NCBI GenBank assembly: GCA_963793265.1
Contig: CAWBZI010000001.1
Coordinates: forward strand, 704,001-768,000
From: an uncultured cyanobacterium
Lineage (GTDB): Bacteria > Cyanobacteriota > Cyanobacteriia > Phormidesmidales > Phormidesmidaceae
Length of the DNA: 64,000 nt
Direction: 5' to 3'
Shown: positions 1,364 to 55,365 of the stretch, in pieces
How the letters are laid out: every line of letters begins with the position of its first letter
How positions within the stretch are numbered: the first letter of the stretch is position 1
Translations under genes and position numbers: made by a program
Notes under the pieces: generated by a model
Database searches by the model: none
Seen by the model: only the letters and a program-made list of their open reading frames with translations
What the model was told of the DNA's origin: nothing

Positions 1364-2010
1364 AATAGTTTCCAGATACCAAAATCTGTACAAAAAGACG
1401 TTGCCATGCGCGCTTTGAAAATTAGTAAGAAATTAGAAAGGCATGGCCTTGGCATAGCCCCCTCAGTTTACCTTGAACCCCTCTGTCGATAGAGGTTGCT
1501 CTCAACTTTATAGAGATGTTTTTTGATTTGATTCAAGATTAGAGTGACGCCATCGCGTGCCATAAGATTTTAGGCAAAGCTTTTGTCTCTAGGACTTTCA
1601 GGGATTTTTCTAGACAATTATTAAAGCGCCACAGCATAGCCACAAACGAGAATTTTGGCTCAGCTAATATCAAGTTTCAATATTTAGTTTACAATGCCAT
1701 TAAGTTTTGATTAAGTATAAATTCCTAGTCGCTTAGCAAATCGACTGAAAAATACTTAATAATTTGGTGGCAGTGCCTAACTATTGCAGTCTGTTCAGCT
1801 ATTTTTAGAAGCCGCACTGAGGTGGCTAGCTGTATCGTATGTGACCTCTTGTCGGCGTGATATTCATGTTGCGTTAGCGGATATACCACATAGACTGTCT
1901 GGGGACATACCGCCGAAACCGAGCTGACTGCCTTTTGTCGGTGGTGTCGAACGCGCTATAAGAACCGCTCGAAAACTGTGTATCTGTTAAGTAAGCCTGT
2001 GAGAGAGAAT

Positions 2011-38098: not shown

Positions 38099-39932
38099 CT
38101 AGTCAACTTGAACCGTAAAGCGAATAAACCCATACGAACCCTCAGGCGTTCCAGGCGCAGTGGCATTCGGTAAGTCAGTCGGCACCGTCACATACACACC
38201 ACCGTCAGTATTAGTACCCTGACAAGGCGCAGCAGGTGTAACTGAGTTATCGAAGCTATAGCCCGCATCGTCACCAGTATCAGCATCCGTTAAGGCTGTA
38301 GGTGCAGCGGTACCCTGGCTAATTTGCAAAGAGCCTGCAACATAGGTCGTATTTTCAGGCACTAGGTCACAAAGCAGAACGCTTGCAGCCGTCGTGTTGC
38401 CGTCTGAAAGGAAGTAAATAGTGTAATCAATCTCTTCATTGGGCTCTGCTGCTGCTTCAATATCACCTTGCAGATAGCCACTAGGCCAGTTCACGCTAGC
38501 ATCATCGTCAGGATCAGCAGGATCGTCTACAACAGTTGCGATCGCATCTCCGCCCACACGGGTCACACGCTTCACCAGCTTCACCGCCGGAGCCGCACCT
38601 TCAATCGTAATCTGATAGTCTTCAACTTCACCGTTTGAAGCAGCATCGTCTGGTGTGAGCCCCGTATCAGAGCTATAGCGGAAGCGAGCGTAGGTTTCGC
38701 CTGCAACAGAAGAGAACGGCACTGTGCTCGTAATCGTCACCAAGTTGCCAGTCGGCGCTTCATCAGTCGCTACCTGCTCACCCGGATCGTCAAAATCACC
38801 GTCGCGGTTAAAGTCAATCCATGCGTTCAGCACACCTGTGCCCGCAGTGGTTACATCTAGCTCAAACGTCTCACCCGGCGCAAATGTCTCACCGTGTAGC
38901 GTCGTGCCCGCGCCGCCATCATCTAGCAGCACGCCATCATCTTCAGCCGGGCCATCGTCACCAGCCGTACTTTCAGCATCCACAACCGTCCCCAAGAAAG
39001 TCACGCCATCAACCACGTGGCTAGGTCCATCGGCCTGGCTCTGTTTGATAGTCACCTATACCAGTGGCAGGCGAAATATCAGGCGCATCACCGTAGTCAA
39101 GCTCAGGCTCACCCACGGGCACTGTCAAGGTATCGCTGGCTTCTCGCTCAGTGCTAGGCGATCCGTCAAGGTCACCATTTTCTGTTGCGGTGTTGTCTTG
39201 AGTAACCACATCGCCGTCAGCGCCATATTCACCGCCAGCCGTGAAAGGGACATTCTGATCAGCCGCAGAGGGTGTATTACCCAAAGCAACCGTGATTTCA
39301 TCCGTGCCCGGTACCAGGTCAGAAGCAGCCTTGATAGGAACGCGCACTTCAATAAAGCCATCAACCGGCAAAGAGCCACCGTTGGGCAGTGAGGCAAAGG
39401 TGCCTGACGACGCACCGGCAGCGGGAACAGTCTCGCTAACAGTGGTTGTAGTGGTGCCGTCGCTATAGGCAACAATCTCAATGGGATTGGCCGGATCAAA
39501 CGCACCGTTGTCAACGTCGGAAGGTGCGCCCGGAATGAAGATCTGAGTTTGGTCATTACCGATGTTCGTGATGCGGTAAGTGAAGTACACAACATCTTCT
39601 GAGCTGATGATGCCATCACCCTGGCTTGGGCCTGGATCGTTAACCGTGTTAGGCGCTTCTGATGCGCCTTGAGCGGTTACATCAATACCGGCCACTTCAG
39701 CAACGGTAATGGTAACTGTATTCGACTCAACTGGAATTGCAGTACCCGGATCGGCTGGGCTCTCAAACGAACCGTAGGCGGTGTTGTCAATTTCAGAGCC
39801 CGCAGCCGTGCCTTCAGCTAAAGCTGGCAGCATAAATGTGCTCAGCAAAACAGCGCCGACGAGAGAACGGAAATACTGTTGTTTTCGATTCTTTTTGAGC
39901 TTATTAGAGAGTTTATTAGAGGTAGATTTCAT
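38099..39932 (-). pseudogene. Secreted DUF11/GEVED fibre subunit interrupted by a frameshift at about 39030-39036
   Basis: ATG 39932 (MKSTSNK..), signal peptide, EGTAAGSEIDNTAYGSF..; DYGDAPD..GDYQTEPG continues in another frame as GPSHVVDGVTFLG..GEVEDY..YGFIRFTVQVD*, matching the intact paralogue at 35078-37948. Confidence 0.8.
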
Positions 39933-40086
39933 GGTGTTAGCGTCTGAGAAGGTTGTTAAGTGATTGAGCAAAAAGATCCACAGGAGGAGTGGAGGGCAAC
40001 AGCCTTGAGATTTGAAATTGAGAAGGCCAATAATTTCAAACGTCAAGGTTGTTGTATTGTTTGTTAGTTCGAGTAAGTCAACTGGT

Positions 40087-43000
40087 CTAATCGACAGTGA
40101 CGCGGAAGCGAATAAAGCCAAAGGCGTCGGTCGGCGTACCAGGGCCAGTTGCGTTAGGGAGCTGATCGGGAGAAGGCGCTAGGTTGACGAGTACGGTGCC
40201 TTCGTTATTAGCGCCTGGGCAAGGCGTAGGCGTCGCATCACCAATAGGAAGAAATTCAGCGCCGTCGCCGTCGGTGTCAGTATCAGAGAGGTTGGTGGTG
40301 TTGCTGTTGGTGAAAAGCACCATGGAGTCGTTGACGTAGGTGGTGCCGTTGGGGATGCGATCGCACAGTTTTACATTCGTAATCGGCGCGTTTCCAGTTG
40401 CCAGGTAGTAAACGGTATATTCCACCTCATCACCGGGCTCTGCAAGCCGATTAGTCGCCCCAGCCAAAAACTTACTCACGCCTGCGCTAGTCTGCCCAGC
40501 AGGCCAGTTAGGATGGTTATCATTATCATCAGTATCGTCATCTACACTATCTGGCAGCGATGTTCCGTTAATCGCCGTAATACGCTTAACAATCGCTAAA
40601 TCCGAGTTTGTGTAGTGGCCGAAATTATTATCAGAATCGGTAATATTTAGTAGCGCACCGAAGTCAGCAGCTTCTAGGTTATCTGTTGTAAAAGTGTCAT
40701 TTTCCGGTGGCAGCGTGGCCGGATCGACATCTAAAACAAACGCACCATTTGAGGCAAAGAGAAAATCATAAGTACCATCTGCTGCCGTATTCTGTGGGAC
40801 TAAAAAGACATCGTTGCCGTCTACTGTGCCATCACCATTGGTATCTCGATAAAGTCTAACTCCAGCGTTCGGCGTACCGGTATCACCTGCGTTGAGCGTG
40901 CCGCTGGTGTCTGGATCAAGAAAAACGGTGCCTGTAATTCGGTTAGGAGGGCCGGTCAAGCAAGCAACGCTTTCATAGTCAGTACCCACAGAGAGCGTGC
41001 TGATTTGGGTGGCTTGTCCTGTTGTCTTATCAACGCTGAAAAAACGGTTCGTGTCGCCTGTTACGGCATAGAACTGACCATCGTTAAAGGCCGTTAAGCC
41101 TTCCATATCACTGGTGCCAAAGGGGCCGATAGCTGTCGTCGATCCATCTGTTGTATTAATGCGAATATAAGTATCTGCGCTGGTGCTACCTGCATTGGCA
41201 ATACCATATAAAAAGCCTGTTTCTGGGTCGAAAGCGATATCGTCAATATCCGCTAATCCAGTCGTCGCATCTGACTGGATTACCAGATAATCTATGCCAG
41301 GGCCAAATGCATCAGCAACTCGATTGCCTGTTACGGGATCGATTTTGATCAATAAATCATCAGGTATACCTTCATTACCCTGGCGCACAGAGCCATAGAG
41401 TTCGCCAGTAAAAGGGTGGAAGGCCAGCCCGTCGATATCGGCAAAGGTTCTGTTGCCCTCGCTGCCGTTACCTGATCCGATAGTGCCCAGGGTGCTGTAG
41501 GCTCCTGTGTTTGTATTCAATATGCCTAGCGTGTTGGCATTAGTCGCGTATAGCGTGTTAGTGATAGGCCAGTAGGCGATCGCCTCAATATTCGGCACTC
41601 CAACCGGGCCAATATTGCTTTCTGCGCCCGAGTTAATGTCAATTGCAACCAGGCGATCGCCCCCATCTGCCACCGAATAACAAATCGTTCCACCCGGCGG
41701 CGGTGTCGTATTCAGCACCGTCACCGCGTCATCTTCATTGTTGGTCAGATCAGGATCGGTAATATCGTTGTTACGAATCGCCTTAGCTGAGTTAGTGATT
41801 TGCCCGGACGCCGAGCTAGAGATAATTCCCGTGACGGTGTAAGTCGCAACCGCCTGATTATTAAGATCTAGCGTGGTGTTGATGTCGTTACCCGTGCCGC
41901 TATCGTCGCCGCAGCTACCGTTACCGCTGGTTATATTGCAGCTCCAGCTTACGTTAGTTAGCGAAGCCGGAATCTGATCTTCAAAGCCAATGCCTGTCTC
42001 ATCACTCGGGCCGTCGTTTGTCACCGTAATTGTGTATTCGAGCGCATCTCCCGGATTCGCGACATCTAAATCAACTTCTTTGTTGACGATCAAATCGGCT
42101 TCTTTGATGACGATGCCGCCCTGCAAAGCCACGTCAGCAGACGGGTAATACACCCAGGTATCGATACCTCTGCGATCGCCAAAATTATTTGTAAACTCAT
42201 GTGCACCCGCCGAGCTATTAATACCTGTAAGCGGGTCGCGATCGGCAGAACCGTTTCCGTAGCAAACAGGATCCGTAACGCCTGCATTTGTGGTCGTTTC
42301 ACCAGACGCACACAGCGAGAAGTCACCACCCAGGTTGCGATCGTCGTAATAAACATTAAAAGGATCTTCATCTTCACTGGTCGGGCCAGCCGGTTGATTA
42401 AGCCGCCTGAGGATAAGACCTCTCGGATTTTGCTCTGCGTCGATCATCGGAAAGTGAGCCTCTCCACCGTACAGATTCACTCGCACGTTATAGGGAATTG
42501 TACTTGGTAGAACAGGCGTTTGATTGCCGTCTAGGCCATCCCAAAACACGCTATTAGCACCGACAACGGCTCTGCCGACAAAGGTGCGGTCATTGCCATT
42601 GCCATAGTCGCCGTCGTTGTTGAGATCTATTGTGATCGAGAAGGCGCTTTGCGTAGGACTGTTGAAACTGAGCGTACCGCCTAGTGGATTAGTACCGGCC
42701 TGGCCAGGCGTGCCTTCAATGCCTGTAAATTCGACACCCGTTGGAATAGGTGGAGGCAGAGGAGGACTCAGCAGCCAGGTAGAACCCGTAGGAGAGTTCG
42801 CAGAACTTGGCATACTTGGATCAGGCAGGTTGATAAACGTTTTGTGGGTGATGTAGATACCCAAATCGGGGTCATTGGGATTTTGAAAGCCGTAGCCAGG
42901 CGGGATTTGCTGGCCAATATTAGCACCCGTCATCTGAAGAGAACGAAAGATAGAGTCGCCAGAAGACTGCTCAAAAAAGCCATTGCGATTGGCAAACAAA

Positions 43001-43701
43001 ATGAAACCGTAAGGATCTAGTCCATTGAGATCAAGATCGTACTGATAGCCTTCTTTAGTAAGAATAAAAAATTGAGAGCTAAGTGACCGGCCGTTGCCAC
43101 CGATATTAAACGCAAAATAATTAGCGTACGTACGGCCTTTTCTTTTTGCTCCGGTGTTAGAACTATCGGCCCTAACCGTTACGTCCCATGCCGAAATGTA
43201 GCTTACGCCATTCGGCTGCGTCCAGTTTGCGGTTCCTGCTGCTACTGCTGGATTCGTACCGTTTGCTTGGTTAGGGCTAACAAAGTCAATTTCCCAAATA
43301 CCTGCTTGACCTGGCCCTATAGTCACCTTGCAAGGCACAAACGTACCGCCAGAGCCGTCACCGGGCCCAGCAATCTCTTGTGCTCGGTTGAGAATTCGTC
43401 CAACGGCACCACAGGTACCAGCATTGTTGTTAGGATTGCGATATCTAATGACGCCATTACCGATGCCAACGGCGCTGGAGCCTAAGTTAATTGTTTCGCC
43501 TTCTTTGGCATATACCTTAATAATTGTTCTTCTTGGAATACCGCCACTCGTGTCATCACGAAATTCCAAGTAAGGTCGATCGCCGCCGCTACTGACAAGA
43601 TCCTGGCTACCTTCTGCGATCGCGCTAGGAGCCGCAAAACTCGCCATACCGCCAAGCAACAAAAACGTACTGGCAATGTTGATGTAGCCTTTATTAATCA
43701 T
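40087..43701 (-). CDS. Large secreted adhesin-like protein: N-terminal domain, FlgD-like Ig, complete DUF11, beta-propeller, SdrD B-like, incomplete C-terminal DUF11
   Basis: AIA-EGS; VFWDGLDGN; ADLIVNK..PGDALEYTITVTNDGP..EDQIP..ITNSA..DP..TNN; IDGLAFHP/IDDIAFDP blades; LAIVKRITAIN..FGFIRFRVTVD*. Confidence 0.87.
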   Translation of the reverse strand: MINKGYINIASTFLLLGGMASFAAPSAIAEGSQDLVSSGGDRPYLEFRDDTSGGIPRRTIIKVYAKEGETINLGSSAVGIGNGVIRYRNPNNNAGTCGAVGRILNRAQEIAGPGDGSGGTFVPCKVTIGPGQAGIWEIDFVSPNQANGTNPAVAAGTANWTQPNGVSYISAWDVTVRADSSNTGAKRKGRTYANYFAFNIGGNGRSLSSQFFILTKEGYQYDLDLNGLDPYGFILFANRNGFFEQSSGDSIFRSLQMTGANIGQQIPPGYGFQNPNDPDLGIYITHKTFINLPDPSMPSSANSPTGSTWLLSPPLPPPIPTGVEFTGIEGTPGQAGTNPLGGTLSFNSPTQSAFSITIDLNNDGDYGNGNDRTFVGRAVVGANSVFWDGLDGNQTPVLPSTIPYNVRVNLYGGEAHFPMIDAEQNPRGLILRRLNQPAGPTSEDEDPFNVYYDDRNLGGDFSLCASGETTTNAGVTDPVCYGNGSADRDPLTGINSSAGAHEFTNNFGDRRGIDTWVYYPSADVALQGGIVIKEADLIVNKEVDLDVANPGDALEYTITVTNDGPSDETGIGFEDQIPASLTNVSWSCNITSGNGSCGDDSGTGNDINTTLDLNNQAVATYTVTGIISSSASGQITNSAKAIRNNDITDPDLTNNEDDAVTVLNTTPPPGGTICYSVADGGDRLVAIDINSGAESNIGPVGVPNIEAIAYWPITNTLYATNANTLGILNTNTGAYSTLGTIGSGNGSEGNRTFADIDGLAFHPFTGELYGSVRQGNEGIPDDLLIKIDPVTGNRVADAFGPGIDYLVIQSDATTGLADIDDIAFDPETGFLYGIANAGSTSADTYIRINTTDGSTTAIGPFGTSDMEGLTAFNDGQFYAVTGDTNRFFSVDKTTGQATQISTLSVGTDYESVACLTGPPNRITGTVFLDPDTSGTLNAGDTGTPNAGVRLYRDTNGDGTVDGNDVFLVPQNTAADGTYDFLFASNGAFVLDVDPATLPPENDTFTTDNLEAADFGALLNITDSDNNFGHYTNSDLAIVKRITAINGTSLPDSVDDDTDDNDNHPNWPAGQTSAGVSKFLAGATNRLAEPGDEVEYTVYYLATGNAPITNVKLCDRIPNGTTYVNDSMVLFTNSNTTNLSDTDTDGDGAEFLPIGDATPTPCPGANNEGTVLVNLAPSPDQLPNATGPGTPTDAFGFIRFRVTVD

Positions 43702-43809: not shown

Positions 43810-45954
43810 TTAAGGTTCAATTTGCAAATCTTCTTCCTGGTTAAAGAAGGTTAAATCTACGCCTCTGACATCAGTAAAGACAAACTCAACTCGGCGGTTA
43901 CGCGCAAAGTTAGTTCGGTTTGTTTCAGCGACCAGCAGTTCTGTTTCGCCAAGCGAGCGAATCGTCATCCGCTCAGCACCAATGCCCTTGCTAAGTAGAT
44001 ATCTACGCGTATTTTCTGCCCGACGACGCGCCAAATCCTGATTGTATTCAACGCTCGCACGTGAATCGGTATGGCCGTGCAAATCAATGACAATGCTGGG
44101 ATACTGTTCTAATACGGTGATAATTCTATCTAGTACAGCGGCACTTTCTACGCTAATAAAGTCCTGATCAAGGCCAAAGTGAACGTTTCGGGGCACTTCT
44201 AGCTGAAGAATTTGCGGCACTTCTACAGGCGGCGCAGGTGGCCGTGAGGTAGGTGGCGCAGGCGGCGTGGGCGGCACAGGTGTAGTTGTACACTGAGGCA
44301 TCACTTCGCCAACAACAGACACCACGTCATTGCTACCTGAGAGCGAGCGAATGGAGGTGTTAAGCGCAGGTTCGGAGGTGCCGTAGCGAGGATCTGTCGC
44401 GATCGCACTCAATACTTCTCCTCCTAAGAAAGAATCAAGCACAAACTCAAAATCGCCCGCTTCATCAGCCATAGCCGTTGCAAGCGGATCGCTCAAAGGG
44501 CCATACGCATCAGCTACGCCCGTAGAGCGATAGAGCTGAATTTCAGTATTAGCATCAGCCTTGCCACGAACTACAGCTTTGCCGTCGATCACAAAGAACT
44601 CGGGGCTGATGAACTGAGGTGCGTTTACCGCGCTGTTGCCGGTATCCTGCCTGCGGTTGCGAGAGTTGCGCTGAGGGTTGGGGCCATCGCCAGTTTGAAA
44701 GTTTTGGGGGTTGCGATCGCGCCGGGCATTCAAATCAATACTCAGCCCCTCATTATCATCAAAGAAATTTCCCGTAATCACATTGTTGTTGCTTTGCGTA
44801 TTCGGCCCTCTACCAAAAGCGGTCACGACAACGCCGCTACCTTTCTGGCTTCTAATATCGTTACCAATCACTCGATGGTCATCTCCCATCAAATACACCG
44901 CTGCCCGCCTTAGCCGCTGGCCGTTGTAGCGAATGTCATTATCAACAATCGTAACGGCCCCATCCGGCTTAAACAAGAAAACGCCGCTGCCGTCATTACC
45001 GCAGATGAGATTATTAGAAATCAGGCCGTTACTGACACTGCCATCCATCCGAATCGCATCCGGCATTCCAGCTAGGCCATTGCCAACTACAATATTCTCA
45101 ACAATTTGTAGATTGTCAGCCTGACGACCCGTGATAATGCCGCTACCGTTGTGATACTCAATTCTATTTCGCTGAATCGTTGCGCCTTTGCTATCAAACA
45201 CCGACACGCCGAAACCAGAAGGATTTTCTGGCAAAGTGCCCGCTGTTGTAAGGCCCAGCCAGTTTTGTTCGATCACAACACCTGTAGGGGGTTCGTCGTT
45301 AGATTGTCCTGCGAACGGAAGGAGGTTGTTACGGTTGAGAGGTGCCGGGCGGTGAGTGATGAAGATGTCGGCGGGTGGGGTGGATTGGGTGATGCGATCG
45401 CTCGCGTTAAATCCATACAGGTTAAGCCCGCGAACAGTAACGTTACTTGCTGAAACCGTCAGGCCACGAAACACTTCTTTATTCGCCGCTGGTCGTAAGG
45501 TAACGGCTGGAATTGGGATCGCAATTTCTGCGGTTGCTGATGAATTGGCATCATAGCCAGGCTGGCTAGTGCCGTCGATGATAACGCCAGGCTGCGAGAT
45601 GGCAGGAAGAACAGATTCCAGCTCAATTGCAGTTCGGCCAGAGGGTAAGTTGAAACGGATTTCTGAACCGTTTTGACTAGCGACGACCAACTGTTGCTCA
45701 GCCGAACTCAACTCAGAACGAAGCAGCGTTCCATTGGTTAATTCAATGGCTTCTCGTAAGATCAGCTCAGCATCAGGTTGAATTGGGCCATCAGCCGGGC
45801 TGTTAACGGTTACCTGAACGGAGGCAGGGCGGGAAGCCTGCGCCAAGCTCACGGCGGGTATCAGCAATGCACTAAGCAAACCGCAGGTTGCCAACAGCTT
45901 TAAACGAAGTTGTCTTTGAGAACGTGTATGTGCCATCTGTTTTACGGGGGCCAT
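43810..45954 (-). CDS. Parallel beta-helix protein with C-terminal OmpA-like peptidoglycan-binding domain
   Basis: Signal peptide; repeated I..N.I..N.G.GI; Pro-rich linker; VHFGLD..LHGHTDSR..YNQDLARRRA..RNRRVEF. Confidence 0.88.
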   Translation of the reverse strand: MAPVKQMAHTRSQRQLRLKLLATCGLLSALLIPAVSLAQASRPASVQVTVNSPADGPIQPDAELILREAIELTNGTLLRSELSSAEQQLVVASQNGSEIRFNLPSGRTAIELESVLPAISQPGVIIDGTSQPGYDANSSATAEIAIPIPAVTLRPAANKEVFRGLTVSASNVTVRGLNLYGFNASDRITQSTPPADIFITHRPAPLNRNNLLPFAGQSNDEPPTGVVIEQNWLGLTTAGTLPENPSGFGVSVFDSKGATIQRNRIEYHNGSGIITGRQADNLQIVENIVVGNGLAGMPDAIRMDGSVSNGLISNNLICGNDGSGVFLFKPDGAVTIVDNDIRYNGQRLRRAAVYLMGDDHRVIGNDIRSQKGSGVVVTAFGRGPNTQSNNNVITGNFFDDNEGLSIDLNARRDRNPQNFQTGDGPNPQRNSRNRRQDTGNSAVNAPQFISPEFFVIDGKAVVRGKADANTEIQLYRSTGVADAYGPLSDPLATAMADEAGDFEFVLDSFLGGEVLSAIATDPRYGTSEPALNTSIRSLSGSNDVVSVVGEVMPQCTTTPVPPTPPAPPTSRPPAPPVEVPQILQLEVPRNVHFGLDQDFISVESAAVLDRIITVLEQYPSIVIDLHGHTDSRASVEYNQDLARRRAENTRRYLLSKGIGAERMTIRSLGETELLVAETNRTNFARNRRVEFVFTDVRGVDLTFFNQEEDLQIEP

Positions 45955-45974: not shown

Positions 45975-48900
45975 TTATAGGTCAGTTGCCGTTGGATAGG
46001 TTTCGTTTGTAGGCATTGCCGAAGAGGTTTCCGAAGAAGTTGCCGCAGAAGTCGTCGAAGAATCTGCTTGAACGCTTTCGTCACCAGACTCTTGAGAAAC
46101 TTGAATAACAGACTCTTCTTGCTGAACAGGTGCAGCAGGCTGTGTGCCAAAGCCATTCAACAAACCGCTGAGCTTAGCCGTCATCCCAAAGTAAAAGCCG
46201 CCCGCGCTCCGATTCTCACCGAAGTCGGTATCGTTAGCGCCGCCGCTATAGCCCGCCGAAACGCGCAGGTCAGGCAGCGGATAGTAGCCGCCTTCAAGCG
46301 AGTAGCCGGTTTCATTAAAGCCACTGCCGCCAATCCAGCGCACTTCGCCCACCGTATCCCAGCGATAGCCCAAGCGATAGGTTGCTCTGGCCTGTGCAAG
46401 CTGTACGGTGCTGCCGCTAGAAAAGCTGTTGTCAGAAACGTTCAGCGAACTGCGGCTGTGGCGTAGCGCATACTTTCCGTATAGCTCCCATCGCCAGTTA
46501 GGCGCATAGATACCTTCAGCCGAAAAGACATGATCCTGCGTTTCCGAATTAGTCCCAGAAAGAGAGTTTGTCGGAATCGAATTAGGGTTCATCCGGTGCT
46601 CGTAGCGCAACAGCCCGTTAAAGCGGTCGTCTTTAGGATTGCGGTAGGCCATACCCAGCTTAAGAATGCTAGTGGTGCCCAAACCTGTGATTCGTTGATT
46701 AGCTGCACGCGCCGCTCGATAATCTCCTAATAGCGTTATGGAAGGCGTGACTCGACCCAGTGCAGAGAGCGTGAATACTGTGTTAGACGTGCCCCGATTG
46801 GAGCTGCGGTGCTCGAAGCGAGTACTGGCCTGAAAATCTGGATTGTCGGTGTAAGAAAGGCCCACGCTGTAACTTTCGCCGCCTGCCAAGCCCAACGCCG
46901 CCGCTCTGTTGCCAGTCGCGAACGGTTGAGCAAACTGCGTACTCGCAGCGGTTTCATTACCTAGCGTAGAGAAGACTTTCTCATAACCCAAATCCAAATC
47001 TAAGCCAGGCGCTAAGTTAATGCCCTGCTCTAAGCCAATCGTGCCGCCAATCTGACGACCGTCTACCGTAGAGAATCGACCGCGAATGGTGGTATCTGAA
47101 GCGAAAGTATGATCTCCAGTGACATCGATACTGGTTGCGTTGCCGCGGCTGTTGCCGCCACCGCCATAAAAGACTTGGTTAGCGCTGATGTTGAGCCAGG
47201 GCATTACTTCCCAGTTCAGACCAATCAGCGTACGGCTAGGGTAGATAGGATCTACGTTAGAAGAGAGGTTAAGTTCGTTTTGGGCGACTAGACTAAGCTT
47301 GCGAGTGATGGGCGTGGTTAAGCGAGTTCTGAGCTGGTCAGAAGAGATTGATCGGTCGCTGTTGATGCGGTCTGTGCGATCGCGATGCAGCCAGTCTATT
47401 TCTGCCGTCGCTCGGCCCAATCGCTGACTTAACCCTATTGAATAGGTCGTCAGCGAATTATCTAGAGGTGCACCCGGCTCGGTATTTAGGCCCAACAACA
47501 GATCAGAGACATCGGTGATGACCCGAGGCGCATTACCTGTATTATCTTCATGATCGTAGCGGGCTCTGAGTGAAGTATTGCGCCCCAAACGTCCTGTCAC
47601 CTGAGCGCCATAGCGGGTTTGCCCTGGCACAAAGCTCGTCGTCGCAGTATTCGTAAAGCCCGCATCCGTAGAGCGGTAATAGGCTCGACCGCTAAGCGCC
47701 GTGCCTAAGCTACCGTCAAACGAAATCCGATAGCCCGTGCCGTTGACCTCATCGGTACCCGAAAAATCGCTTGAAGACTGCGCAATTTCAGCAATCACCT
47801 GAGCATTCTGGCCTAAGGCAATGCGAGCGTCCGCGCCATAAAGCGTAAAGTCGCGAGTGCCCTGGTCTTCGGTAAAGTAGCTCGCCCCCACCCAAGACTC
47901 TACGCCCTGCTGCTGATTGAGGTTGTATTGCAAGCGTCCCGCTAAGATGTCGGTGTCGTCACCGTCTTCGTGCTGGTAAGTTGCAACAATCCGACGAACC
48001 AACAACAGTCCATAATCATCAACAGCGGTGCGAGTCACCGGATCGTTGAAGAGAATCGTGCCTCGGTCGTAGTCAATCTCGTAGTCAGCACCACGATAGA
48101 GAGGCTTGCGCTCTAACACCGTACCGGGCCGTTCGAGTTCTTCAAGTTCTATATAGACATTTTCACTACCGGGCAACAGATTGCGCTCAGATGTAAAGTA
48201 GAAGCCGCTCGTACCGTCAGGCACAATCGTATCTCTTTGGAAGCCTTCTACGTTGTTAGCGTATAGGCCCGTAACGGCTAAGTTGCCGAAGTTGTAGTTA
48301 GATTTGAAGCCGTGAAGCTGGCGGCTTGTGGCGGTAAAAAGCTGAGAAGAGGTAGCAAATTCAGACGTGCTGAAGTCGCCCCACATGGCGTAGTCAATAG
48401 CTCTATCGTTGCTGGGCGAGTTGCGCTCTAGTCGTAAGTAAACGCTGTCGAGAGAAGGCGCGAGCGTATCGGTGTAAGAGTCGTCGCCGTAGGTTGTATA
48501 GCTGCTGCAATCGCTGCCAGTGCCCGATCGAAAGAGCGTTGTTTCGCCACGACAGTTTTCGTTGAGGGTGCGATCGCTGTTATAAGCCCCCGTATAAAGC
48601 CACTCGCCCAAATTACCCGTTGCAAACACCGCCGCGTCTACATCAAACTCATAGCTGTTGTCGCCATCTTCAGGTAAAAAGTCTCGGAAGCTGTCGTAAA
48701 AGTCGGTGCCGCGTGCGCCCACTCGGATGTCAATTACACCCGAAATTAAGCTAGGTCTTTGCGGGGTTTCAAACTGCACCTGGCTAAAGGCATCGAACCC
48801 GTTAGCATTTGCCTGAATCTGCACCAGATGAGATTCGAGCGAAGATTGCAGCTCAGCAGCGAACTCACCGCGCCGAATTTCTACCTGATAGCCCGGCATA

Positions 48901-50471
48901 TCTGGGTCTTGATCAGCACCGATAAACTGACCGTCGCTCGTGCGCAGCGTGGCCACCGAATCCCAGCGAGAGATGTTGCCAATCTCATCGACGAGCTGGC
49001 CGCGAATCGTCGCCGTAGAGCGACCGTCAGAAGGAATCGACTGGGGAGAGAGCAACACCAGTTTTTCAGGCAAGCCTCGCACCGTCAGCGGCAAGCTTTG
49101 GAGAACGTCACCCGTTTCTGTTGAAATAACTTCTAGAACGTTCTCACCTGACACCAGGGGAACGCCGTACCAGGTTTGCGTACGAAGCTGAGTCACTGGG
49201 TCGGTTTCTGTTCTACCCACTAAGCTCGAATCAACCACATGGCCGTTCGTCAGCAGAGCGATATTTGCGCCAGTCGGGAAGCGCAGCACAACAGAAGTGG
49301 CCGGAATATCCAGGAAAGCGCCTGCTTCAGGGCTTAAAAACTCAATGTCACTGGCGTCTGCTGAGACGGCAATTTCATCACCAGTCGCTAAGTCAGCAGG
49401 CGTAATTGATATCTGTTGAATACCGTTAATATCGTAGCTAGCAACGCCCGGTGTGAACGTAGAGTCGATGATGGCAATATCGTCGCTATCAGCTTCTATC
49501 AGCTCGCGTGGCGTGAGCGAAATCCAGGCAGCGGGACGTTTAGCAGCCTCACGTCTTGGTAGGTTGACAGCGAGGCGAGGCGCGTTTGGATTCTCTTGTA
49601 TCTGGCCGTTGTCGTCCACCATGAGACGACGCGCTAGCCAGGGCGTTTTCTTTTCGTCATCGTCTTCAGCCTCTAGGCCAAGCGCAATCCGAAGCTCATC
49701 CCGTTTTTCTTCCGCTTCGTCTGTCGCTTCAGGCGCGAGGGCAATTTGAGGCGCGAGAGTTTGTAGAGGTGCGATCGCTTCTACAGCTTCCGTTTCAATT
49801 GACGTCTCAAAACCCGGCAGTGTCGTTGCTAACCATGGAGTTTTCTTTTGCTCAGCCTGCGGGGCTTCAGGCGTAGCGATCGCAATCAAAGGCGCAATCG
49901 TATTAAAGTCTTGCTTCTCTGGGGGGGGGGCGATCACGATCAAAGGCGATTCCTTAAGTAAAAGCGCCTGATTTTCTGTTTCTTCCTCTTCCTCTTCTTC
50001 AATCCCTTCCTCAGGAGAGAGAGATAATAGTGCTGGTTCAGTGTTTGCTGCTGTGAGGTCTACTGTAGGCTCATTGCTGGCTTCTGAAGAATCTACAGCA
50101 ATGAGGGGGAAGTCGTTTTGAGCAGATTGAGCGATCACACTCTCTTCTGCAAACGCTTGGGCCAGCAAAGGAGCCGTCGGTTCATAATTATCGGCAACCA
50201 CCGTCTCCGACTCAATCCAGGGAACATCCCACTGTACCGCGCGAGTTTTTAGCTCAACGCCAGGCGCGATCGCCTCTAAAGACTCAGCCTCATCAACAGG
50301 ATCTATCGGGGTGTCTAACCCCTGTACGGCCTCAGCAGATTGAGCATTAGCAGCGCTAGGCAGCAGCCCCAAACTCGCTAGCACACTTACAGCAAGCCCA
50401 GACTTCAGACCAGCAGGACAGTTTGAGAGCAGTCTAAAGAGCAACAGTTTATCTTTTGAAGTTTTAGACAT
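45975..50471 (-). CDS. Large outer-membrane beta-barrel protein (putative translocon/usher)
   Basis: Signal peptide; acidic disordered N-terminus; invasin-like Ig (PSDGRSTATI..LVDE.GN); GADYEIDYDRGTILF; long C-terminal run of amphipathic strands with aromatic ends. Confidence 0.75.
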   Translation of the reverse strand: MSKTSKDKLLLFRLLSNCPAGLKSGLAVSVLASLGLLPSAANAQSAEAVQGLDTPIDPVDEAESLEAIAPGVELKTRAVQWDVPWIESETVVADNYEPTAPLLAQAFAEESVIAQSAQNDFPLIAVDSSEASNEPTVDLTAANTEPALLSLSPEEGIEEEEEEETENQALLLKESPLIVIAPPPEKQDFNTIAPLIAIATPEAPQAEQKKTPWLATTLPGFETSIETEAVEAIAPLQTLAPQIALAPEATDEAEEKRDELRIALGLEAEDDDEKKTPWLARRLMVDDNGQIQENPNAPRLAVNLPRREAAKRPAAWISLTPRELIEADSDDIAIIDSTFTPGVASYDINGIQQISITPADLATGDEIAVSADASDIEFLSPEAGAFLDIPATSVVLRFPTGANIALLTNGHVVDSSLVGRTETDPVTQLRTQTWYGVPLVSGENVLEVISTETGDVLQSLPLTVRGLPEKLVLLSPQSIPSDGRSTATIRGQLVDEIGNISRWDSVATLRTSDGQFIGADQDPDMPGYQVEIRRGEFAAELQSSLESHLVQIQANANGFDAFSQVQFETPQRPSLISGVIDIRVGARGTDFYDSFRDFLPEDGDNSYEFDVDAAVFATGNLGEWLYTGAYNSDRTLNENCRGETTLFRSGTGSDCSSYTTYGDDSYTDTLAPSLDSVYLRLERNSPSNDRAIDYAMWGDFSTSEFATSSQLFTATSRQLHGFKSNYNFGNLAVTGLYANNVEGFQRDTIVPDGTSGFYFTSERNLLPGSENVYIELEELERPGTVLERKPLYRGADYEIDYDRGTILFNDPVTRTAVDDYGLLLVRRIVATYQHEDGDDTDILAGRLQYNLNQQQGVESWVGASYFTEDQGTRDFTLYGADARIALGQNAQVIAEIAQSSSDFSGTDEVNGTGYRISFDGSLGTALSGRAYYRSTDAGFTNTATTSFVPGQTRYGAQVTGRLGRNTSLRARYDHEDNTGNAPRVITDVSDLLLGLNTEPGAPLDNSLTTYSIGLSQRLGRATAEIDWLHRDRTDRINSDRSISSDQLRTRLTTPITRKLSLVAQNELNLSSNVDPIYPSRTLIGLNWEVMPWLNISANQVFYGGGGNSRGNATSIDVTGDHTFASDTTIRGRFSTVDGRQIGGTIGLEQGINLAPGLDLDLGYEKVFSTLGNETAASTQFAQPFATGNRAAALGLAGGESYSVGLSYTDNPDFQASTRFEHRSSNRGTSNTVFTLSALGRVTPSITLLGDYRAARAANQRITGLGTTSILKLGMAYRNPKDDRFNGLLRYEHRMNPNSIPTNSLSGTNSETQDHVFSAEGIYAPNWRWELYGKYALRHSRSSLNVSDNSFSSGSTVQLAQARATYRLGYRWDTVGEVRWIGGSGFNETGYSLEGGYYPLPDLRVSAGYSGGANDTDFGENRSAGGFYFGMTAKLSGLLNGFGTQPAAPVQQEESVIQVSQESGDESVQADSSTTSAATSSETSSAMPTNETYPTATDL
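49921..49930 (+). repeat. G10 homopolymer (C10 on the coding strand) within the barrel gene
   Basis: Ten consecutive G; encodes APPP, currently in frame. Confidence 0.85.
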
Positions 50472-50473
50472 GA

Positions 50474-51976
50474 TTAGTTTTGCTCCTCCTGGAAAGTGGG
50501 CGTTACCCCAAAGTTCATGCGCACGAGCCCGCCGGGAGCAAGATTAACCAGTCGAGAATGACTGTTGCGTTCGTTAAAGCGAAGGTTTGGGGCGAGCGTG
50601 TAGCCCGGTAAGCTACTCAGATCAATAGTGCCGGTACGCTGTCCAGGCAGCATTTTTTGAACAGAATAAAGGCCGTCCGCATCAGTAACCACTCGGTTAC
50701 CGTCATCTAAGAATATGACCGCGTTTGGAATACCCGCCTCACCCGGCTGCTGCTCGCCATCAAAGTTTTTATCTTCAAAAACGCGACCGATGAGCGTACC
50801 GCAGTCAGAGAGAATACCAGGGTCAAGCGTTAGTTGATGAGAGCTTGGCCCGTCTTGAACCCTAAAGCCGCTATCTGTTCTTTCGGCAGTAACCTCAGCG
50901 CTGTTACGGCCCGACCCTCTTAGCGCATCTGGCGTCAGCCGCACACCGTAGATAATATCTAGCGTACGATCAGCAGGCAGCACATCAGGCACCCTAAAGC
51001 TTACTGTTCGATTATTGATATCAGCAACAACCGGAACAACATCACCGTCTACTTGGCCCGTCACTGACTCTGGCAACAGCTCGAAACCAAGCGGTAGCGT
51101 ATCTACTGCAACAATTGAATCGATACCAGCTCTAGCCAAGTTTTGAATATTTAACCGATAGAGAACAATATCTCCAGGCTGAGCCGCAGAGCGGTCGGCT
51201 GATTTGGTGATTCTGACCTGCTCAGATTCGCAAATAACAGAGCTTAAACCAAATTCAAAGAAGGTTAAGAACTGAACGGCTGCGTTGCGAACTTCAACCC
51301 GGCGCGTGAGTTCGGTAGCACCATCAACTGAGATAGGCTGACCGTCTAAAGATGTCGCTCGGTAGCTAAGTGTTGCTGTATTATTTGCAGTATCTTCTGC
51401 AATGCCTTGCAGTTCAATTCGAATACGTCTCTCGCCAAAAGAAGAGTCATCTGGTGGATTGATAACCAGGATATATTGAGCACCTGCGTCGGTCTGGCTT
51501 AGCCCAGCGTTAATTGGGCTAGTGAGCTGAACAGACGAATCGAATAAGAAATTGTAACGACCTTCATTCGGTAAGAAGGGAAAGGGATTAACGTTGCTCT
51601 CGTTGGGTGGAATGCTGTCGGTACCGCTAGTAGGCGTAAGAGATACCAAATTTCCTAAATCTAAACCGCTAGCATCGGGTTCGTAGAGCGCACTCGAAAA
51701 GCCAACATAGCTAGGAAGCGGTTCGCCATTGCAGCCTAAAAGATCGCCGCCTGGGTCGATTAATACTGGGTCTAGGCCAGTGATAATTTGGTTAGAGGTA
51801 ATGCCAACGGGGCCGTTGCCAGTGGTGTAGGTAGCCGTCGCTTCGTTAAGAATATCAGGTAGCTGCGCGTAGGCACCGGTGATTGGGTGGCTCAAGAGGC
51901 CAACTAAAACGAGGGCCATCAAACGCTGCCAGCGGCGGGAGCGTCGAAACCATTTAGGTGTGGAAAAAATTGGCAT
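50474..51976 (-). CDS. Secreted DUF11 + SdrD B-like protein
   Basis: Signal peptide; ILNEATATY..TSN; VRITKSADRS.AQPGDIVLY..VDTLP..GRNSA; GRVFEDKNFDGEQQPGE.GI; 2-nt gap to the barrel gene. Confidence 0.85.
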   Translation of the reverse strand: MPIFSTPKWFRRSRRWQRLMALVLVGLLSHPITGAYAQLPDILNEATATYTTGNGPVGITSNQIITGLDPVLIDPGGDLLGCNGEPLPSYVGFSSALYEPDASGLDLGNLVSLTPTSGTDSIPPNESNVNPFPFLPNEGRYNFLFDSSVQLTSPINAGLSQTDAGAQYILVINPPDDSSFGERRIRIELQGIAEDTANNTATLSYRATSLDGQPISVDGATELTRRVEVRNAAVQFLTFFEFGLSSVICESEQVRITKSADRSAAQPGDIVLYRLNIQNLARAGIDSIVAVDTLPLGFELLPESVTGQVDGDVVPVVADINNRTVSFRVPDVLPADRTLDIIYGVRLTPDALRGSGRNSAEVTAERTDSGFRVQDGPSSHQLTLDPGILSDCGTLIGRVFEDKNFDGEQQPGEAGIPNAVIFLDDGNRVVTDADGLYSVQKMLPGQRTGTIDLSSLPGYTLAPNLRFNERNSHSRLVNLAPGGLVRMNFGVTPTFQEEQN

Positions 51977-52185: not shown

Positions 52186-52749
52186 CTACTTAACCGTCAC
52201 TTCATGAGAAACGTTAACAGCAACAGAGCTACCCAGCGCTTCGTTAAAGTTCCATTTCACGTGAGTGTAAGCAGAAGCAGGCGCAGGCTGCATCTCAACA
52301 GTGCCATCAGGCAAAGTAACTTCGACCATAGGCTCAGCTACAAAAGTCGCACCACCGTCGATGCTGTAAGTCGCATCAGCCGCAGTATTACCCTTCTCAG
52401 AACCAATGACATAAGTCATCGCAGCAGGAATAGGCTGAGTAATCACGAGATTTTCAGCAGGCAGTTCGCCAGCGTTAGAAGAAACGACCGCGTAGCGTAG
52501 CTTATCACCAGGCTGTACAGCCGCTTCGCCCTCTAGCTTTTGCCATTCAGCTTTCTCGGTACCGTCAGCATCGACGACAGTCATCTCTTTTTCAACGCCC
52601 ATTTCGAGCTTTACTTCAGGGCGAGTGAGGCGCTGTGCGATCGCCGCGCCCGCTTCTTGAATGCTCGCAAACACAGGTGTGCTCACTGCAAAAGGCGCAG
52701 AGGCCACCAAAGCTGCAACACCCAAACCAAACATGAACTTACGTTTCAT
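52186..52749 (-). CDS. Small secreted single-domain DUF11-like protein
   Basis: Signal peptide; VQPGDKLRY..NAG..AENLVITQPIPAAMTYV..YSIDGG..YTHVKW..VSHEVTVK*. Confidence 0.88.
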   Translation of the reverse strand: MKRKFMFGLGVAALVASAPFAVSTPVFASIQEAGAAIAQRLTRPEVKLEMGVEKEMTVVDADGTEKAEWQKLEGEAAVQPGDKLRYAVVSSNAGELPAENLVITQPIPAAMTYVIGSEKGNTAADATYSIDGGATFVAEPMVEVTLPDGTVEMQPAPASAYTHVKWNFNEALGSSVAVNVSHEVTVK

Positions 52750-52869: not shown

Positions 52870-55365
52870 TTAGTTAACAGAACGACGAATAACGAAGGTA
52901 CCCGATGCGCCCGGTGCAACAGAAGGCACTTCGTTTTCATACTTCTCAGCAGGCGTGCCATCAACAGGATCGGTTGGGCTAGTTGCCGCAGGCGTAGTAT
53001 CAGCGCTGGTTGAGAAGTAGCGGATTTCGCCGTTATCAGCCGTCGCACCAGAGCGGTGGCTAGTAAACTCAGCCCAGTTGTTAGTCCCTGCGTTACCGTC
53101 CTCAAGAATTAGGAAGTCGTTAGCGGTGAGCGTAACGCTGCCTGCACCTGTTGCAGACTGAGAGATGTTCTGGTAAGTGAGACGGTACTCAATGGTTTCA
53201 CCCGGCGCAGCATTTGCAGTAGGTGTTGCAGTGAATGCTTCGCGAACAGAGCCATCAGCAGCCAGAATTTGAGCTTCCTTCATCAGCATCATGAAGCCGG
53301 TGTATACGCGGTCGATGGTGATGTTGTTAGTTGTCTCACCTGTGTAGCCAGGCGATACGACAGGATCGTCGTCAGGGAAGGCAACGATAGGAATCGCGAC
53401 GTCTTCTAGCTGAGTAACGCCGTCGGGCAGGTCTACTTCAACGGTGTAGTCAACAGAATTACCTGCGGCGACATCGCCAACGTTAACAGGCGCATCAGGC
53501 GTTGTGAACGTTGTACCGTCGTAAGTGTATACGGCGGTGTTAGTGCCATCGCTGATAGTAACAATTGTGCCGACAGGAATATCGCCATCAACACCATACG
53601 CACCAGGCTGACCACCCGCAGCTTCAGCTTCAGTAGGCGACAGTGGCTCGATAGTGGTTTCAGCAATAAAGCCAATGCCAGCAGGGTTACTCACCGTGTT
53701 GTTGAAGGTAACCGCATCAGGGTCAAACGGCGTGGCAGGGTCTAAACCAGCCGGAACAGGTGTAGACAAGTTGGTGAAGTCGTCGTTGTCGTTGGTTGGG
53801 CCAATGGCATTAGGCGCACCGTCTGGGCCAGTAAGAATATCGTCAGTCGTTGGCGTAATCGAAACAACGTTGAGTTCACCGTCGTCGCCTGTACCTGAGT
53901 TGTCGTTGTTGTTGTCAACCAGGCTTGGATCATCAGGCTGGTTGTCGCCGTCGCCATCAGTTTCAGGTGCAATACCGTCATCTGTGCCAGGTACGTAATC
54001 GCTACCGTCAGCGGCAGGAGGATTACCTGCGTCGTCGTAGTTGTTAGGATTGGCGTCACCTGATTCATCGTAGATAATCTGAGGGTCAGGATCGGTGTCG
54101 CCAGCGGTTTGACCAAAGACCTGTGCGATGTTTTCGATGGTACCGCCCGTTTCAGGCAAGCCGCTGGTAACCACTGTGAAGGTTAGACCAGTGACCGTAG
54201 AGCCTACGTTGAGCGTACCAGCATTAACAAAACCAATGCGAGTAACTGTGCTCAAGTCAGTAGGCTGCGCAGTTTGCCATGCAAGCGTTAGCGGGTCAGA
54301 CCCTGCGTCCGCACCAGCCGGATCAACAGAATAGACAGGCGACCAACCATTAGGCAGGTTACTGCCTACAGAAGATAGGGTTGTCTGTGCTGGAATAGCA
54401 TCAGAAACCAGAATGCGATTCGCTGTAGCACCGTCTAGGGTAATGTCAGTGCCATCAAGTGCGGCTGCATTGAAGAGGCCAGCAGGGTCTAAATCTTCTA
54501 CACGCACGCCTAAGTCATAGGCGATAGTGTCATCGGTCGGATCGGCAGGAACACCAGCGTTAGCAATGCTAGACGTTTTGAGAACAGTCGCCAAAGCGAG
54601 GGCGTCGTCAGAACCGGCAAAGATAAGAGAGCTGTTGTCTTGTGCCTCACGCTCACCGTTTTCAGGTGCTTCAGGGCCAACATTCTCAGTGCGAACATCG
54701 TCAAGATTAGCGCCGCCGTCATCGTTATCTGACTGGTTTTGCTCTTCATCGACGCCTTCAACCGTGGGGTTGTCGGTGGTGTTACCTAGCTCGACTACTA
54801 TCAAATCGCCTGCAACAGTGCCAGCAGCAGGCGTACCTGTCACTCTTACTCTAAAGCTTTCATCTGGGTCGATTGGATCTCCACCCAAGCCAACAATAGT
54901 ACCGCCTTCTGCAGGAACCGTCCCAATCAAGACACCGTCTGAGTCAAAGACTTGTACAGGGTCAGTATCAGAAGGTGTGAAGTTGTCAGTTCTAATATTG
55001 TCAATGCCAGGAACGAAGACATCGGTTACTGCATTACCAATGTTAGTCACTTCAAAGTCATAAAAGAGGGTATCACCCGCTTCGACCGCGCCGCCATCTT
55101 CATCAATAGGAGGCTGAGCGCTTACGGTCAAGCCTGCAATTTCAGCAACTTTGATGACCACTGTATTAGAAGTGGTATCGAAGTCATTACCGTTACCGTC
55201 GTTGTAGGTCGCGGTTGCGGTGTTGCTGATGTCCGTTCCGGCATCAGTGCCTTCCGCCACAACAGCGCCGACCATATTGAACACGCCAGCAACTGCTAGA
55301 GTAGCAGCGAGAAGAGGCTTGTGAGCCTGCCAGCGAAATTTTTTCTGTTGTACTGTTTTTGCCAT
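52870..55365 (-). CDS. Secreted Asp/Thr/Gly-rich DUF11-family protein, putative major fibre subunit
   Basis: ATG 55365 (MAKTVQQKK..), signal peptide, EGTDAGTDISNTATATY..SNTVVIKV; several Ig-like domains; LMKEA..PGETIEYRLTYQN..SGTFVIRRSVN*. Confidence 0.87.
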   Translation of the reverse strand: MAKTVQQKKFRWQAHKPLLAATLAVAGVFNMVGAVVAEGTDAGTDISNTATATYNDGNGNDFDTTSNTVVIKVAEIAGLTVSAQPPIDEDGGAVEAGDTLFYDFEVTNIGNAVTDVFVPGIDNIRTDNFTPSDTDPVQVFDSDGVLIGTVPAEGGTIVGLGGDPIDPDESFRVRVTGTPAAGTVAGDLIVVELGNTTDNPTVEGVDEEQNQSDNDDGGANLDDVRTENVGPEAPENGEREAQDNSSLIFAGSDDALALATVLKTSSIANAGVPADPTDDTIAYDLGVRVEDLDPAGLFNAAALDGTDITLDGATANRILVSDAIPAQTTLSSVGSNLPNGWSPVYSVDPAGADAGSDPLTLAWQTAQPTDLSTVTRIGFVNAGTLNVGSTVTGLTFTVVTSGLPETGGTIENIAQVFGQTAGDTDPDPQIIYDESGDANPNNYDDAGNPPAADGSDYVPGTDDGIAPETDGDGDNQPDDPSLVDNNNDNSGTGDDGELNVVSITPTTDDILTGPDGAPNAIGPTNDNDDFTNLSTPVPAGLDPATPFDPDAVTFNNTVSNPAGIGFIAETTIEPLSPTEAEAAGGQPGAYGVDGDIPVGTIVTISDGTNTAVYTYDGTTFTTPDAPVNVGDVAAGNSVDYTVEVDLPDGVTQLEDVAIPIVAFPDDDPVVSPGYTGETTNNITIDRVYTGFMMLMKEAQILAADGSVREAFTATPTANAAPGETIEYRLTYQNISQSATGAGSVTLTANDFLILEDGNAGTNNWAEFTSHRSGATADNGEIRYFSTSADTTPAATSPTDPVDGTPAEKYENEVPSVAPGASGTFVIRRSVN

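Follow-up and report, generated by a model that had tools for sequence, protein, structure and literature searches.

The window studied here is a stretch of 64,000 nucleotides from an uncultured cyanobacterium of the family Phormidesmidaceae (contig CAWBZI010000001.1, positions 704,001 to 768,000), and it carries a locus of ten open reading frames (ORFs), which we named by their length in amino acids (aa). The locus takes up positions 32369-55461 and, like every feature of the window given below, lies on the minus strand. We lean towards the view that it encodes a modular surface fibre or stalk, whose subunits are joined by a split isopeptide domain of the CnaA-like (CLIPPER/DUF11) type. The main subunit, p863 (52870..55365), has both parts of such a joint, a C-terminal acceptor domain that ends ahead of the strand with the bonding Asn, and a donor peptide at the mature N-terminus. 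The split of the domain and the fit of its two parts are well supported by computation, and its use between chains is well argued from the gene content.

The ORF of p863 is open to 55461, and the ATG at 55365 (MAKTVQQ...) is the likely start, judging from homologues and from the consensus of 38 homologues. Residue numbers follow P0001 (856 aa), which is the ORF numbering minus 7. The signal peptide (M26-A62, 55255..55365) is seen in the 38-homologue consensus, and cleavage would take place after AVVA, a position judged by eye from the A-x-A pattern. The donor peptide that follows (E63-G103, 55132..55254) is made up of two strands, ...GTDISNTATATY... and ...SNTVVIKVAEIAG, the counterparts of the last but one and the last strand in a CnaA-like/DUF11 domain. 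Asn73, in an I.N.A motif (55222..55224), is the candidate isopeptide Asn, and a second one, Asn92, stands in an SN.V motif of the last strand (55165..55167). The acceptor domain, here called A1 (residues 712-856, 52873..53307), is a beta-sandwich with a Lys and a Glu that ends before the Asn strand. Lys721 (53278..53280) is in its first strand, and Glu780 (53101..53103) is the candidate catalytic acid. The preliminary description of this DNA had placed the acid in an LED motif; we moved it to Glu780, and the residue itself is acidic in 69/69 orthologues.

The same pattern, I.N.A...Y...SN.V.V, is found directly after the signal peptide in p863, p366, p885, and p500. That the missing strands reappear at this place had been noticed earlier for the first three, and p500 is an addition of ours. 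The peptides of p366 (39684-39818) and p885 (34766-34876) were located by a peptide profile match, and that of p500 (51773..51862) reads LPDILNEATATY...SNQIITGL. A hidden Markov model (HMM) of the peptide was run against the six-frame ORFs of the complete genome (5.68 Mb, 26,848 ORFs). It matched only the four in the locus (E 6.6e-22, 4e-10, 9e-4, and 0.049), and the next match had an E of 1.3. The donors come in two flavours, N.ATATY in p863 and p500, and NQATGSF...EVAGI in p885 and p366. In one related locus (L074:446-5492) there are two tandem p863 paralogues, the second with a divergent donor (ISNQAEGSY...) and without the second SN motif. We had taken this paralogue for a protein with an acceptor only, an assignment that was dropped when the divergent donor was found, and it is not counted as such.

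Five subunits end straight after a beta-strand, FVIRRSVN* in p863, IRFRVTVD* in p1204, IRFTVQVD* in p318, FRFKTRVTP* in p956, and IRFRAVVD* in p885, and all these early-stopping ends were found where the preliminary description had put them. The A1 type (LMKEA...ILEDG...FVIRRSVN*) occurs in p863 only, and the other four locus ends share a second type of acceptor, C2, which in p1204 (40090..40605) reads VKR...CD...FIRFRVTVD*; in p318 (38102-38590), p956 (35081-35647), and p885 (32372-33028) it was delimited by a C2 profile match. By hhalign the two types are homologous and share their end position (probability 81.9%, E 1.1e-5). Over the ORFs of the genome, the C2 HMM matched one ORF on another contig in addition to the four of the locus on which it had been trained, and all matches reach the last residue. 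The additional protein (P0137, 1017 aa; 366138-369188 on the genome contig labelled C2, outside the window) has GEVED, SdrD_B, and C2 domains and no donor. Matches to TIGR01451, for which the cut-off is 24 bits, were obtained for p318 (residues 201-246, 33.0 bits) and p885 (residues 735-777, 34.2 bits), and within C2 they span only the first half of the domain. The C2 of p956 stays under this cut-off with 17.4 bits, and that of p1204 matches TIGR04226, the RrgB D2 isopeptide domain, with an E of 2.2e-5, under the family cut-off. Sequence searches of the Protein Data Bank (PDB) with phmmer gave 0 matches for the complete DUF11 domain of p1204 and 0 for the C-domain of p863; the C-domain of p1204 drew a single antibody chain (E 0.087), which was judged spurious.

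At E <= 1e-5 p863 has 465 homologues, and most of the 120 listed span nearly its full length. Conservation was read from 69 orthologues, taken from 67 loci in different cyanobacterial genomes. N73 and N92 are both present in 69/69, K721 in 68/69, and the acid is Glu in 64 and Asp in 5 of the 69. K721 and N73 are also the Lys and Asn singled out in the preliminary description, and they proved to be invariant columns in a 38-sequence alignment. The C2 family was sampled through 120 listed homologues of p885, where Lys, Asp, and the Cys preceding the Asp are each present in 115/115 domains, and no conserved Asn follows downstream of the Lys and Asp in these 115 domains. In the donors of the same set the first Asn is present in 98/98, and the second position is N in 89, D in 8, and E in 1. 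The acceptors thus hold no contiguous Lys/acid/Asn triad: the Lys and the acid are there, and the invariant Asn is in the N-terminal peptide. The Cys before the Asp (CD) of C2 is an invariant column, C88, among 70 sequences, and a second Cys, C136, is likewise invariant; judging from the sequences the two are probably joined by a disulfide next to the reaction centre.

The conservation bears on whether the two parts are joined covalently at all. It is conceivable that the strands complement each other without a bond, and that the Lys, acid, and Asn are kept for packing or folding, as in chaperone-usher pili, TasA, and archaeal bundling pili. Donor-strand fibres without cross-links are common (PMC9715654, PMC11580942), and the N35A mutant of BsaA, a fibre protein of the TasA family from Clostridium perfringens, still gives oligomers that are stable in sodium dodecyl sulphate (SDS) until they are heated (Kivimaki et al., bioRxiv 2024/25, PMC11580942). 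However, CnaA-like domains are defined by a triad in which a Lys is buried, an acid stands on the strand next to it, and an Asn completes the set (Costa et al. 2025, PMC12617251), and this triad is kept in 68-69/69, 115/115, and 98/98 sequences amid variable surroundings. The small secreted protein p187 (52186..52749), which has a single DUF11-type domain, is also informative. Its orthologues have Gln at the position of the catalytic Asp in 68/69 and the same final residue in 69/69, and this sole conserved domain without the acid also fails to conserve the Lys (55/69), so the acid and the Lys seem to be kept or lost together. We therefore consider complementation without a bond improbable.

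A complex was modelled of p863 with itself, A1 (residues 703-856) and the peptide (residues 62-106), each with a 38-row alignment, and the geometry was read from the listed contact pairs. The interaction prediction score from aligned errors (ipSAE) was 0.84, as compared to 0.00 for the best of three controls. The mark set for the complex score was attained by 116 solved complexes out of 157, as compared to 2 mismatched pairs out of 215, which is a rough guide here as our own alignment was used; close cousins of a true partner can pass as well. In the complex runs at least 94% of the contacts were in agreement and the predicted local distance difference test (pLDDT) of the partner was at least 79; for A1 it was 83-86 with the peptide, as compared to 70 and 73 in two control runs with unrelated partners. 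Peptide residues 75-80 run antiparallel to 773-780 with Glu780 opposite Ala75, which puts Glu780 diagonal to Asn73. The last peptide strand is parallel to the first acceptor strand, 719 being paired with 91 and 721 with 91, 92, and 94. In the model the strand layout is CnaA-like, the first strand bearing the Lys and the penultimate one, in the opposing sheet, the Asn (PMC12617251).

Structural comparison of the acceptors is compatible with the same kind of domain. In an exhaustive VIA search both acceptor models matched many isopeptide domains of Gram-positive pilins and adhesins with Z 6-8, those of A1 lying at Z 6-7.4. The fit to 9ifr was Z 7.4 with a root-mean-square deviation (rmsd) of 2.4 over 90 residues for A1, and Z 6.3 with rmsd 2.9 over 89 residues for C2. 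The top row for C2 was CppA (Z 8.0, rmsd 3.0, 113 aligned), and mostly pilin domains came next. For A1 as well as for C2 the aligned ranges start at the Lys strand and stop about 9-12 residues short of the bonding Asn. With the Lys and Asn of the solved domains taken from Table 1 of PMC12617251, the alignment covers 187..307 in RrgB D2 (2x9z; K193, N318), 182..289 in SpaD (4hss; K187, N299), 180/181..680 in GBS104 (3txa; K188, N692), 172..282 in CNM (7lgr; K177, N291), and 1329..1462 in SpaP (3opu; K1334, N1469). The range on 9ifr (18/19..109 of 123) was not used for the truncation, since the numbering of the entry differs from K715/N806. To judge from these models, A1 and C2 look like CnaA-like isopeptide domains cut ahead of the Asn hairpin.

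A number of observations weigh against a bonded split domain, and they should be set beside the above. The preliminary description had expected the C-domain and the N-terminal peptide to bind with Lys, Asn, and acid brought together; the fit of the two is predicted with high confidence by the complex model, but the lowest-error contacts of K721 are S91, N92, and V94 and not N73. Because of this, either Asn may be the bond partner, and in the model Asn92 is a possible alternative to Asn73. As engineered split complexes of the CnaA-like type have been solved (5mkc, Jo.In), part of the complex score may stem from structures of this kind that the predictor had memorised. A1 folded alone has a pLDDT of 89.9 and eight strands, and the C2 of p1204 alone has 86.0; such confident lone folds mean that the acceptors may be stable without a donor. 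The preliminary description had counted a C-domain that folds as a complete monomer as evidence to the contrary, and the confident fold of the p863 domain by itself neither establishes such a monomer nor excludes one. The A1 model, the only one submitted to Foldseek, had 0 matches in the PDB at E <= 0.001. By the tool's own standard Z values of 6-8 in the VIA search are common, and for A1 it was adaptor mu-homology domains (Z 9.1) that ranked first. The C-domain of p863 has no Pfam or NCBIfam match to DUF11 or any other family, the region 52870-53400 giving only a spurious DUF4690 in Pfam at E <= 1, and the whole protein 0 families in NCBIfam. One of the 69 orthologues has Gln in place of K721. 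Finally, all members of the proposed fibre are known from genes and models.

Some of these points would also suit a quite different explanation, namely that the N-terminal motif and the C-terminal sandwich are independent sorting signals, which are read by an export machinery built around p1498, much as C-terminal sorting domains are in other secretion systems, and do not bind each other. Besides the C-domains that are predicted to fold alone, it would account for the strict position of C2, which is 0-6 residues from the C-end in 115/115 domains among the 120 listed p885 homologues, while the middles of the proteins are very varied (GEVED, SdrD_B, VWA, LTD, beta-helix, and DUF6923). A dedicated giant protein in the locus, probably of the outer membrane, would fit as well. 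On the other hand, the peptide docks onto A1 when the controls do not, the sequence pattern of the donors matches the final two strands of the complete DUF11 domains that the locus also encodes, and the alignments of the C-domains to isopeptide domains run until just before the Asn strand. Sorting signals would also leave the invariant triad without an explanation, and we find this reading very hard to credit.

We return to the split domain and to how it may be used, for which the related loci, 79 taken from genome contigs, are of interest. The order p863-p187-p500-p1498 is found in 58 of the 59 loci for which at least three downstream genes are annotated, and the 59th has split ORFs in the same order. 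After p1498 there is usually p714, and often a p1204-like or other C2 protein. The operon is carried by Phormidesmis, Acaryochloris, Moorena, Pseudanabaena, Oscillatoria, Nodosilinea, and others, and the best protein matches of p863 are from Phormidesmis and related filamentous cyanobacteria. One p863 homologue (locus L065) comes from a metagenome bin labelled 'PVC group bacterium', where it is on a contig of 2.5 kb; the other named matches are all cyanobacterial, and the label may be a binning error.

Donors and acceptors are unevenly distributed over these proteins. An acceptor was found in 0/61 p500 orthologues, and 42 of the 54 inspected by motif search have the I.N.A motif after the signal peptide. 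The motif search was used since the donor HMM, made from p863 orthologues, detects only 6/61 of them; those missed by the motif search include forms of about 830 aa, in which the inspected stretch does not take in the N-terminus, and three short forms that have T.N/TDN for the hydrophobic residue. Among the 120 listed p885 homologues, 94 have a donor after the signal peptide together with C2, 21 have C2 only, 4 a donor only, and 1 neither. The proteins with C2 only have a signal peptide followed by other domains, and their Lys and Asp are retained. In all, 4 donors and 6 acceptors are encoded in the genome studied here. An acceptor alone is found in p1204, p956, and the protein on the other contig, a donor alone in p500, and both in p863, p885, and p366/318. 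That conserved proteins with only one of the two parts keep the bond residues is hard to account for unless the module also pairs between chains. By analogy, a gene set with acceptor, donor, or both would follow the same logic as the tip, shaft, and terminator of chaperone-usher pili.

For proteins with both parts, the N-terminal hairpin could instead complete the C-domain of its own chain, giving a circularly permuted, discontinuous CnaA-like domain into which all the rest of the protein would be inserted, and each such protein would be closed and perhaps covalently cyclised; pairing between chains would then be limited to the proteins with only a donor or only an acceptor. This counts against a fibre, as closure within one chain equally predicts that donor and acceptor occur together, which they do in 94 of the 120 listed p885 homologues and in the 69 p863 orthologues. 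The complex model fits pairing within a chain or between chains equally. CnaA-like domains are also known to tolerate large insertions, the parts of the GBS104 domain (K188/N692) being residues 137-211 and 587-717, and the discontinuous domains of RrgA are likewise a precedent (PMC12617251). What argues against it is first the direction of the strands. The first acceptor and the last donor strand are parallel in the model (719/91, 721/92-94), so entry and exit are at opposite poles, as in stalks of domains in tandem, and to close, the chain would have to make a U-turn across three or four domains. The junctions are direct, with no linker (...VAEIAG-LTV...; ...ITIDRVYTG-FMML...), and the conserved acceptor-only tips and the donor-only p500 need a module that works between chains. 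We think closure within one chain rather unlikely, and for the p863 type it is one of three possible topologies, the others being a homopolymer and a defined chain of tip, shaft, and base.

For the fibre the following course of assembly can be proposed. The acceptor would be the extreme C-terminal domain of a subunit, with a buried Lys in its first strand and an acid on a neighbouring strand (Glu in p863, Asp in C2), and would lack the penultimate and last strands; these two, together with the invariant Asn, would be supplied by the mature N-terminus of a different subunit. Once the proteins have been exported by Sec, the N-terminal hairpin would enter the C-domain of the preceding subunit, and the completed hydrophobic core would gather Lys, Asn, and acid. 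A Lys-Asn isopeptide bond would then form autocatalytically, without a sortase. Tips would be the proteins with an acceptor only and large N-terminal modules (p1204, p956, and the one elsewhere in the genome), shaft or adaptors the proteins with both parts (p863, p885, and p366/318), and base or terminator the donor-only p500, beside the p1498 barrel and the p714 anchor. The preliminary description had put it as subunit n+1 completing subunit n, locked covalently into a polymer. The fit, the triad, the truncation, and the proteins with one part only all speak for part of this picture, in which the bond and the polymer are inferred; for p863 itself pairing between chains may be how the module is used, and the order of the subunits would follow from the gene set.

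The roles of the accessory proteins can be sketched in the same way. With its altered active site, p187 is possibly a non-covalent acceptor, a cap or chaperone for donor strands. The giant p1498 (45975..50471) has no Pfam or NCBIfam match; its layout is an acidic repetitive N-terminal third, Ig-like stretches, and C-terminal about 800 aa with an alternating beta pattern. Its language-model look-alikes are large clusters resembling outer-membrane and TonB-receptor proteins (scores 0.87-0.99), which can be taken as leads only. It is probably an outer-membrane barrel and assembly platform, through which the fibre may be exported across the outer membrane. The protein p714 (43810..45954) has a beta-helix and an OmpA-like peptidoglycan-binding domain and would serve as an OmpA-type anchor. 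In Pseudanabaena-type loci the p1498 orthologue bears a stretch similar to p714. Of the remaining proteins, p500 is a candidate for the base or terminator and p1204 for the tip.

The ATGSF-type donor accompanies C2 in the 94 listed p885 homologues with both parts, and two flavours of donor together with two flavours of acceptor (A1, C2) suggest pair specificity, perhaps even a fixed order. Taken together, the observations could describe a so far undescribed class of bacterial surface fibre, widespread in cyanobacteria, whose subunits are welded head-to-tail by a naturally split CLIPPER-type domain with no enzyme, and which is assembled on a giant outer-membrane barrel with a logic like that of chaperone-usher pili. 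Two natural and possibly orthogonal Tag/Catcher pairs, ATATY-A1(Glu) and ATGSF-C2(Asp), would set the order of the subunits, and p187, a catalytically dead acceptor with Gln for Asp, would be a reversible donor-strand cap or chaperone. We put this joint reading forward tentatively, with less assurance than the fibre itself.

Complete copies of the domain are present in the same locus. The preliminary description had placed complete DUF11 domains at about 41720-42100 and 50830-51220 and another inside p863, and Pfam finds a domain at each of these places. That of p1204 is at residues 536-659 (E 3.3e-20, window 41725-42096), that of p500 at residues 254-368 (E 2.5e-5, window 50873-51217), and the one in p863 is DUF7925 (PF25546; residues 290-475, E 5.4e-59). 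It is a complete internal isopeptide-type domain (54037..54594) with its own K288/D347/N437, as seen from Pfam, the alignment, and Table 1 of PMC12617251. Aligned to DUF7925 with hhalign, the A1 profile gave a probability of 1.5% and no meaningful alignment, and because of this no sequence argument can be made for a split relative to the internal complete copy.

The donor-only p500 (50474..51976) has SdrD_B in addition to its complete DUF11, and p885 (32369..35026) is made up of donor, SdrD_B, and C2. The acceptor-only p1204 (40087..43701) has a large N-terminal part, the complete DUF11, and DUF6923-like repeats, and p956 (35078..37948) is its acceptor-only paralogue with a GEVED domain. The overlapping ORFs p366 and p318 (38099..40121) are one gene with donor, GEVED, and C2, which a single frameshift has interrupted near 39029. 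Both ORFs are spanned by the intact orthologues P0238 (612 aa) and P0226 (604 aa), and the frame switch falls at residue 305/306 of the former and 296/297 of the latter. The break is either a pseudogene or a sequencing error. The SdrD_B matches of p500 and p885 and the GEVED matches of p318 and p956 are from Pfam/NCBIfam. In the flanks there are genes for a WD40 protein, a GAF histidine kinase, and a Ser/Thr kinase. The scan against Pfam/NCBIfam took in 16 proteins, 10 of the locus and 6 flanking ones, and brought up no sortase, PapD-like chaperone, or usher family. The subunits have no C-terminal sorting signal and end in their last beta-strand (...RRSVN*, ...RVTVD*) with no hydrophobic tail.

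If the fibre reading is true, it would mean a new route to covalent surface fibres in bacteria with two membranes, needing neither a sortase nor any known chaperone or usher. A domain so far known only as an internal cross-link would be a joint between subunits, and there would be an explanation for the so far unexplained operon that many filamentous and marine cyanobacteria have conserved. It would also provide natural ligation pairs of the Tag/Catcher type, possibly two that are orthogonal, already suited to extracellular conditions. The testable question that it raises is whether CnaA-like isopeptide chemistry takes place between chains in nature.

The closest relatives are the CLIPPER domains (DUF11, PF01345; PDB 9IFR) and DUF7925, both defined as bonded within one chain (PMC12617251). 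The summary table of that paper gives 154 DUF7925 domains in the AlphaFold Database, 109 of them predicted to be bonded. The likeness would be in an Ig-like sandwich whose first strand bears the Lys, a nearby strand the Asp/Glu, and the penultimate strand the Asn, and p863 itself holds a complete DUF7925 domain of this class. The triad is contiguous there, whereas here the Asn hairpin is detached at the mature N-terminus and the rest is the last domain. A Nostoc homologue of p863 (Q8YS00) is cited there for its internal DUF7925 domain only, and the words 'split' and 'cyanobacteri' have 0 occurrences in the main text of PMC12617251. A search of the full-text literature found no paper on a split DUF11/CLIPPER/CnaA-like domain used for assembly, nor on the cyanobacterial operon.

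SpyTag and SpyCatcher are fragments of an isopeptide domain that re-associate and bond spontaneously between chains. In Jo/In, engineered fragments of RrgA likewise form a bond between chains (PDB 5mkc; PMC5333627), and 5mkc is among the VIA matches (A1 Z 6.2, C2 Z 6.0). These are man-made cuts of domains bonded within one chain, whereas here the cut would be natural and serve assembly. Chaperone-usher pili (type 1 and P; general knowledge and PMC11821415) have a tip adhesin with an acceptor and no donor, and their operon encodes a terminator and an outer-membrane assembly platform, which would be like the gene set described here. They differ in being non-covalent, in donating one strand as compared to two here, and in their PapD-like chaperone and usher, families that the 16 scanned proteins lack; the subunits here are also multidomain proteins of 500-1200 aa. 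In the Sulfolobus acidocaldarius thread (Saci_0406; Gaines et al. 2022, PMC9715654) an intersubunit isopeptide bond has been proposed, in addition to head-to-tail donor-strand complementation, and a sortase is not known for it. It is archaeal, has another fold and a single type of subunit, and its bond would link the alpha-amino group of Asp24 to Asn57 of subunit n+2.

A system similar in its way of working is BsaA with its 'exchange and lock', which is supported by the N35A, K74A, and E56A mutants (PMC11580942). An N-terminal donor strand bearing the Asn enters the next monomer, and the acceptor has the Lys and a Glu catalyst. The intermolecular Lys-Asn bond is autocatalytic and gives oligomers stable to heat and SDS with no sortase, which is the same working principle as we propose. 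Residues of this kind, an Asn donor at the N-terminus and a Lys plus acid in the acceptor, are found here at the level of the sequence. The idea of the preliminary description is thus less new than it may seem, since strand exchange with an autocatalytic Lys-Asn bond was already published for BsaA. The differences are that BsaA has a TasA-type fold, a single-domain Gram-positive subunit, and the SipW signal peptidase, and that it is not known to have an outer-membrane platform or separate proteins for tip, shaft, and base. No locus protein matched the TasA/BsaA family in Pfam/NCBIfam, and the C2 domains match the DUF11-type repeat instead. The principle is thus known from BsaA, and what would be new here is that strand exchange and an isopeptide lock are achieved by a different fold, in a diderm bacterium, and with an outer-membrane platform of its own.

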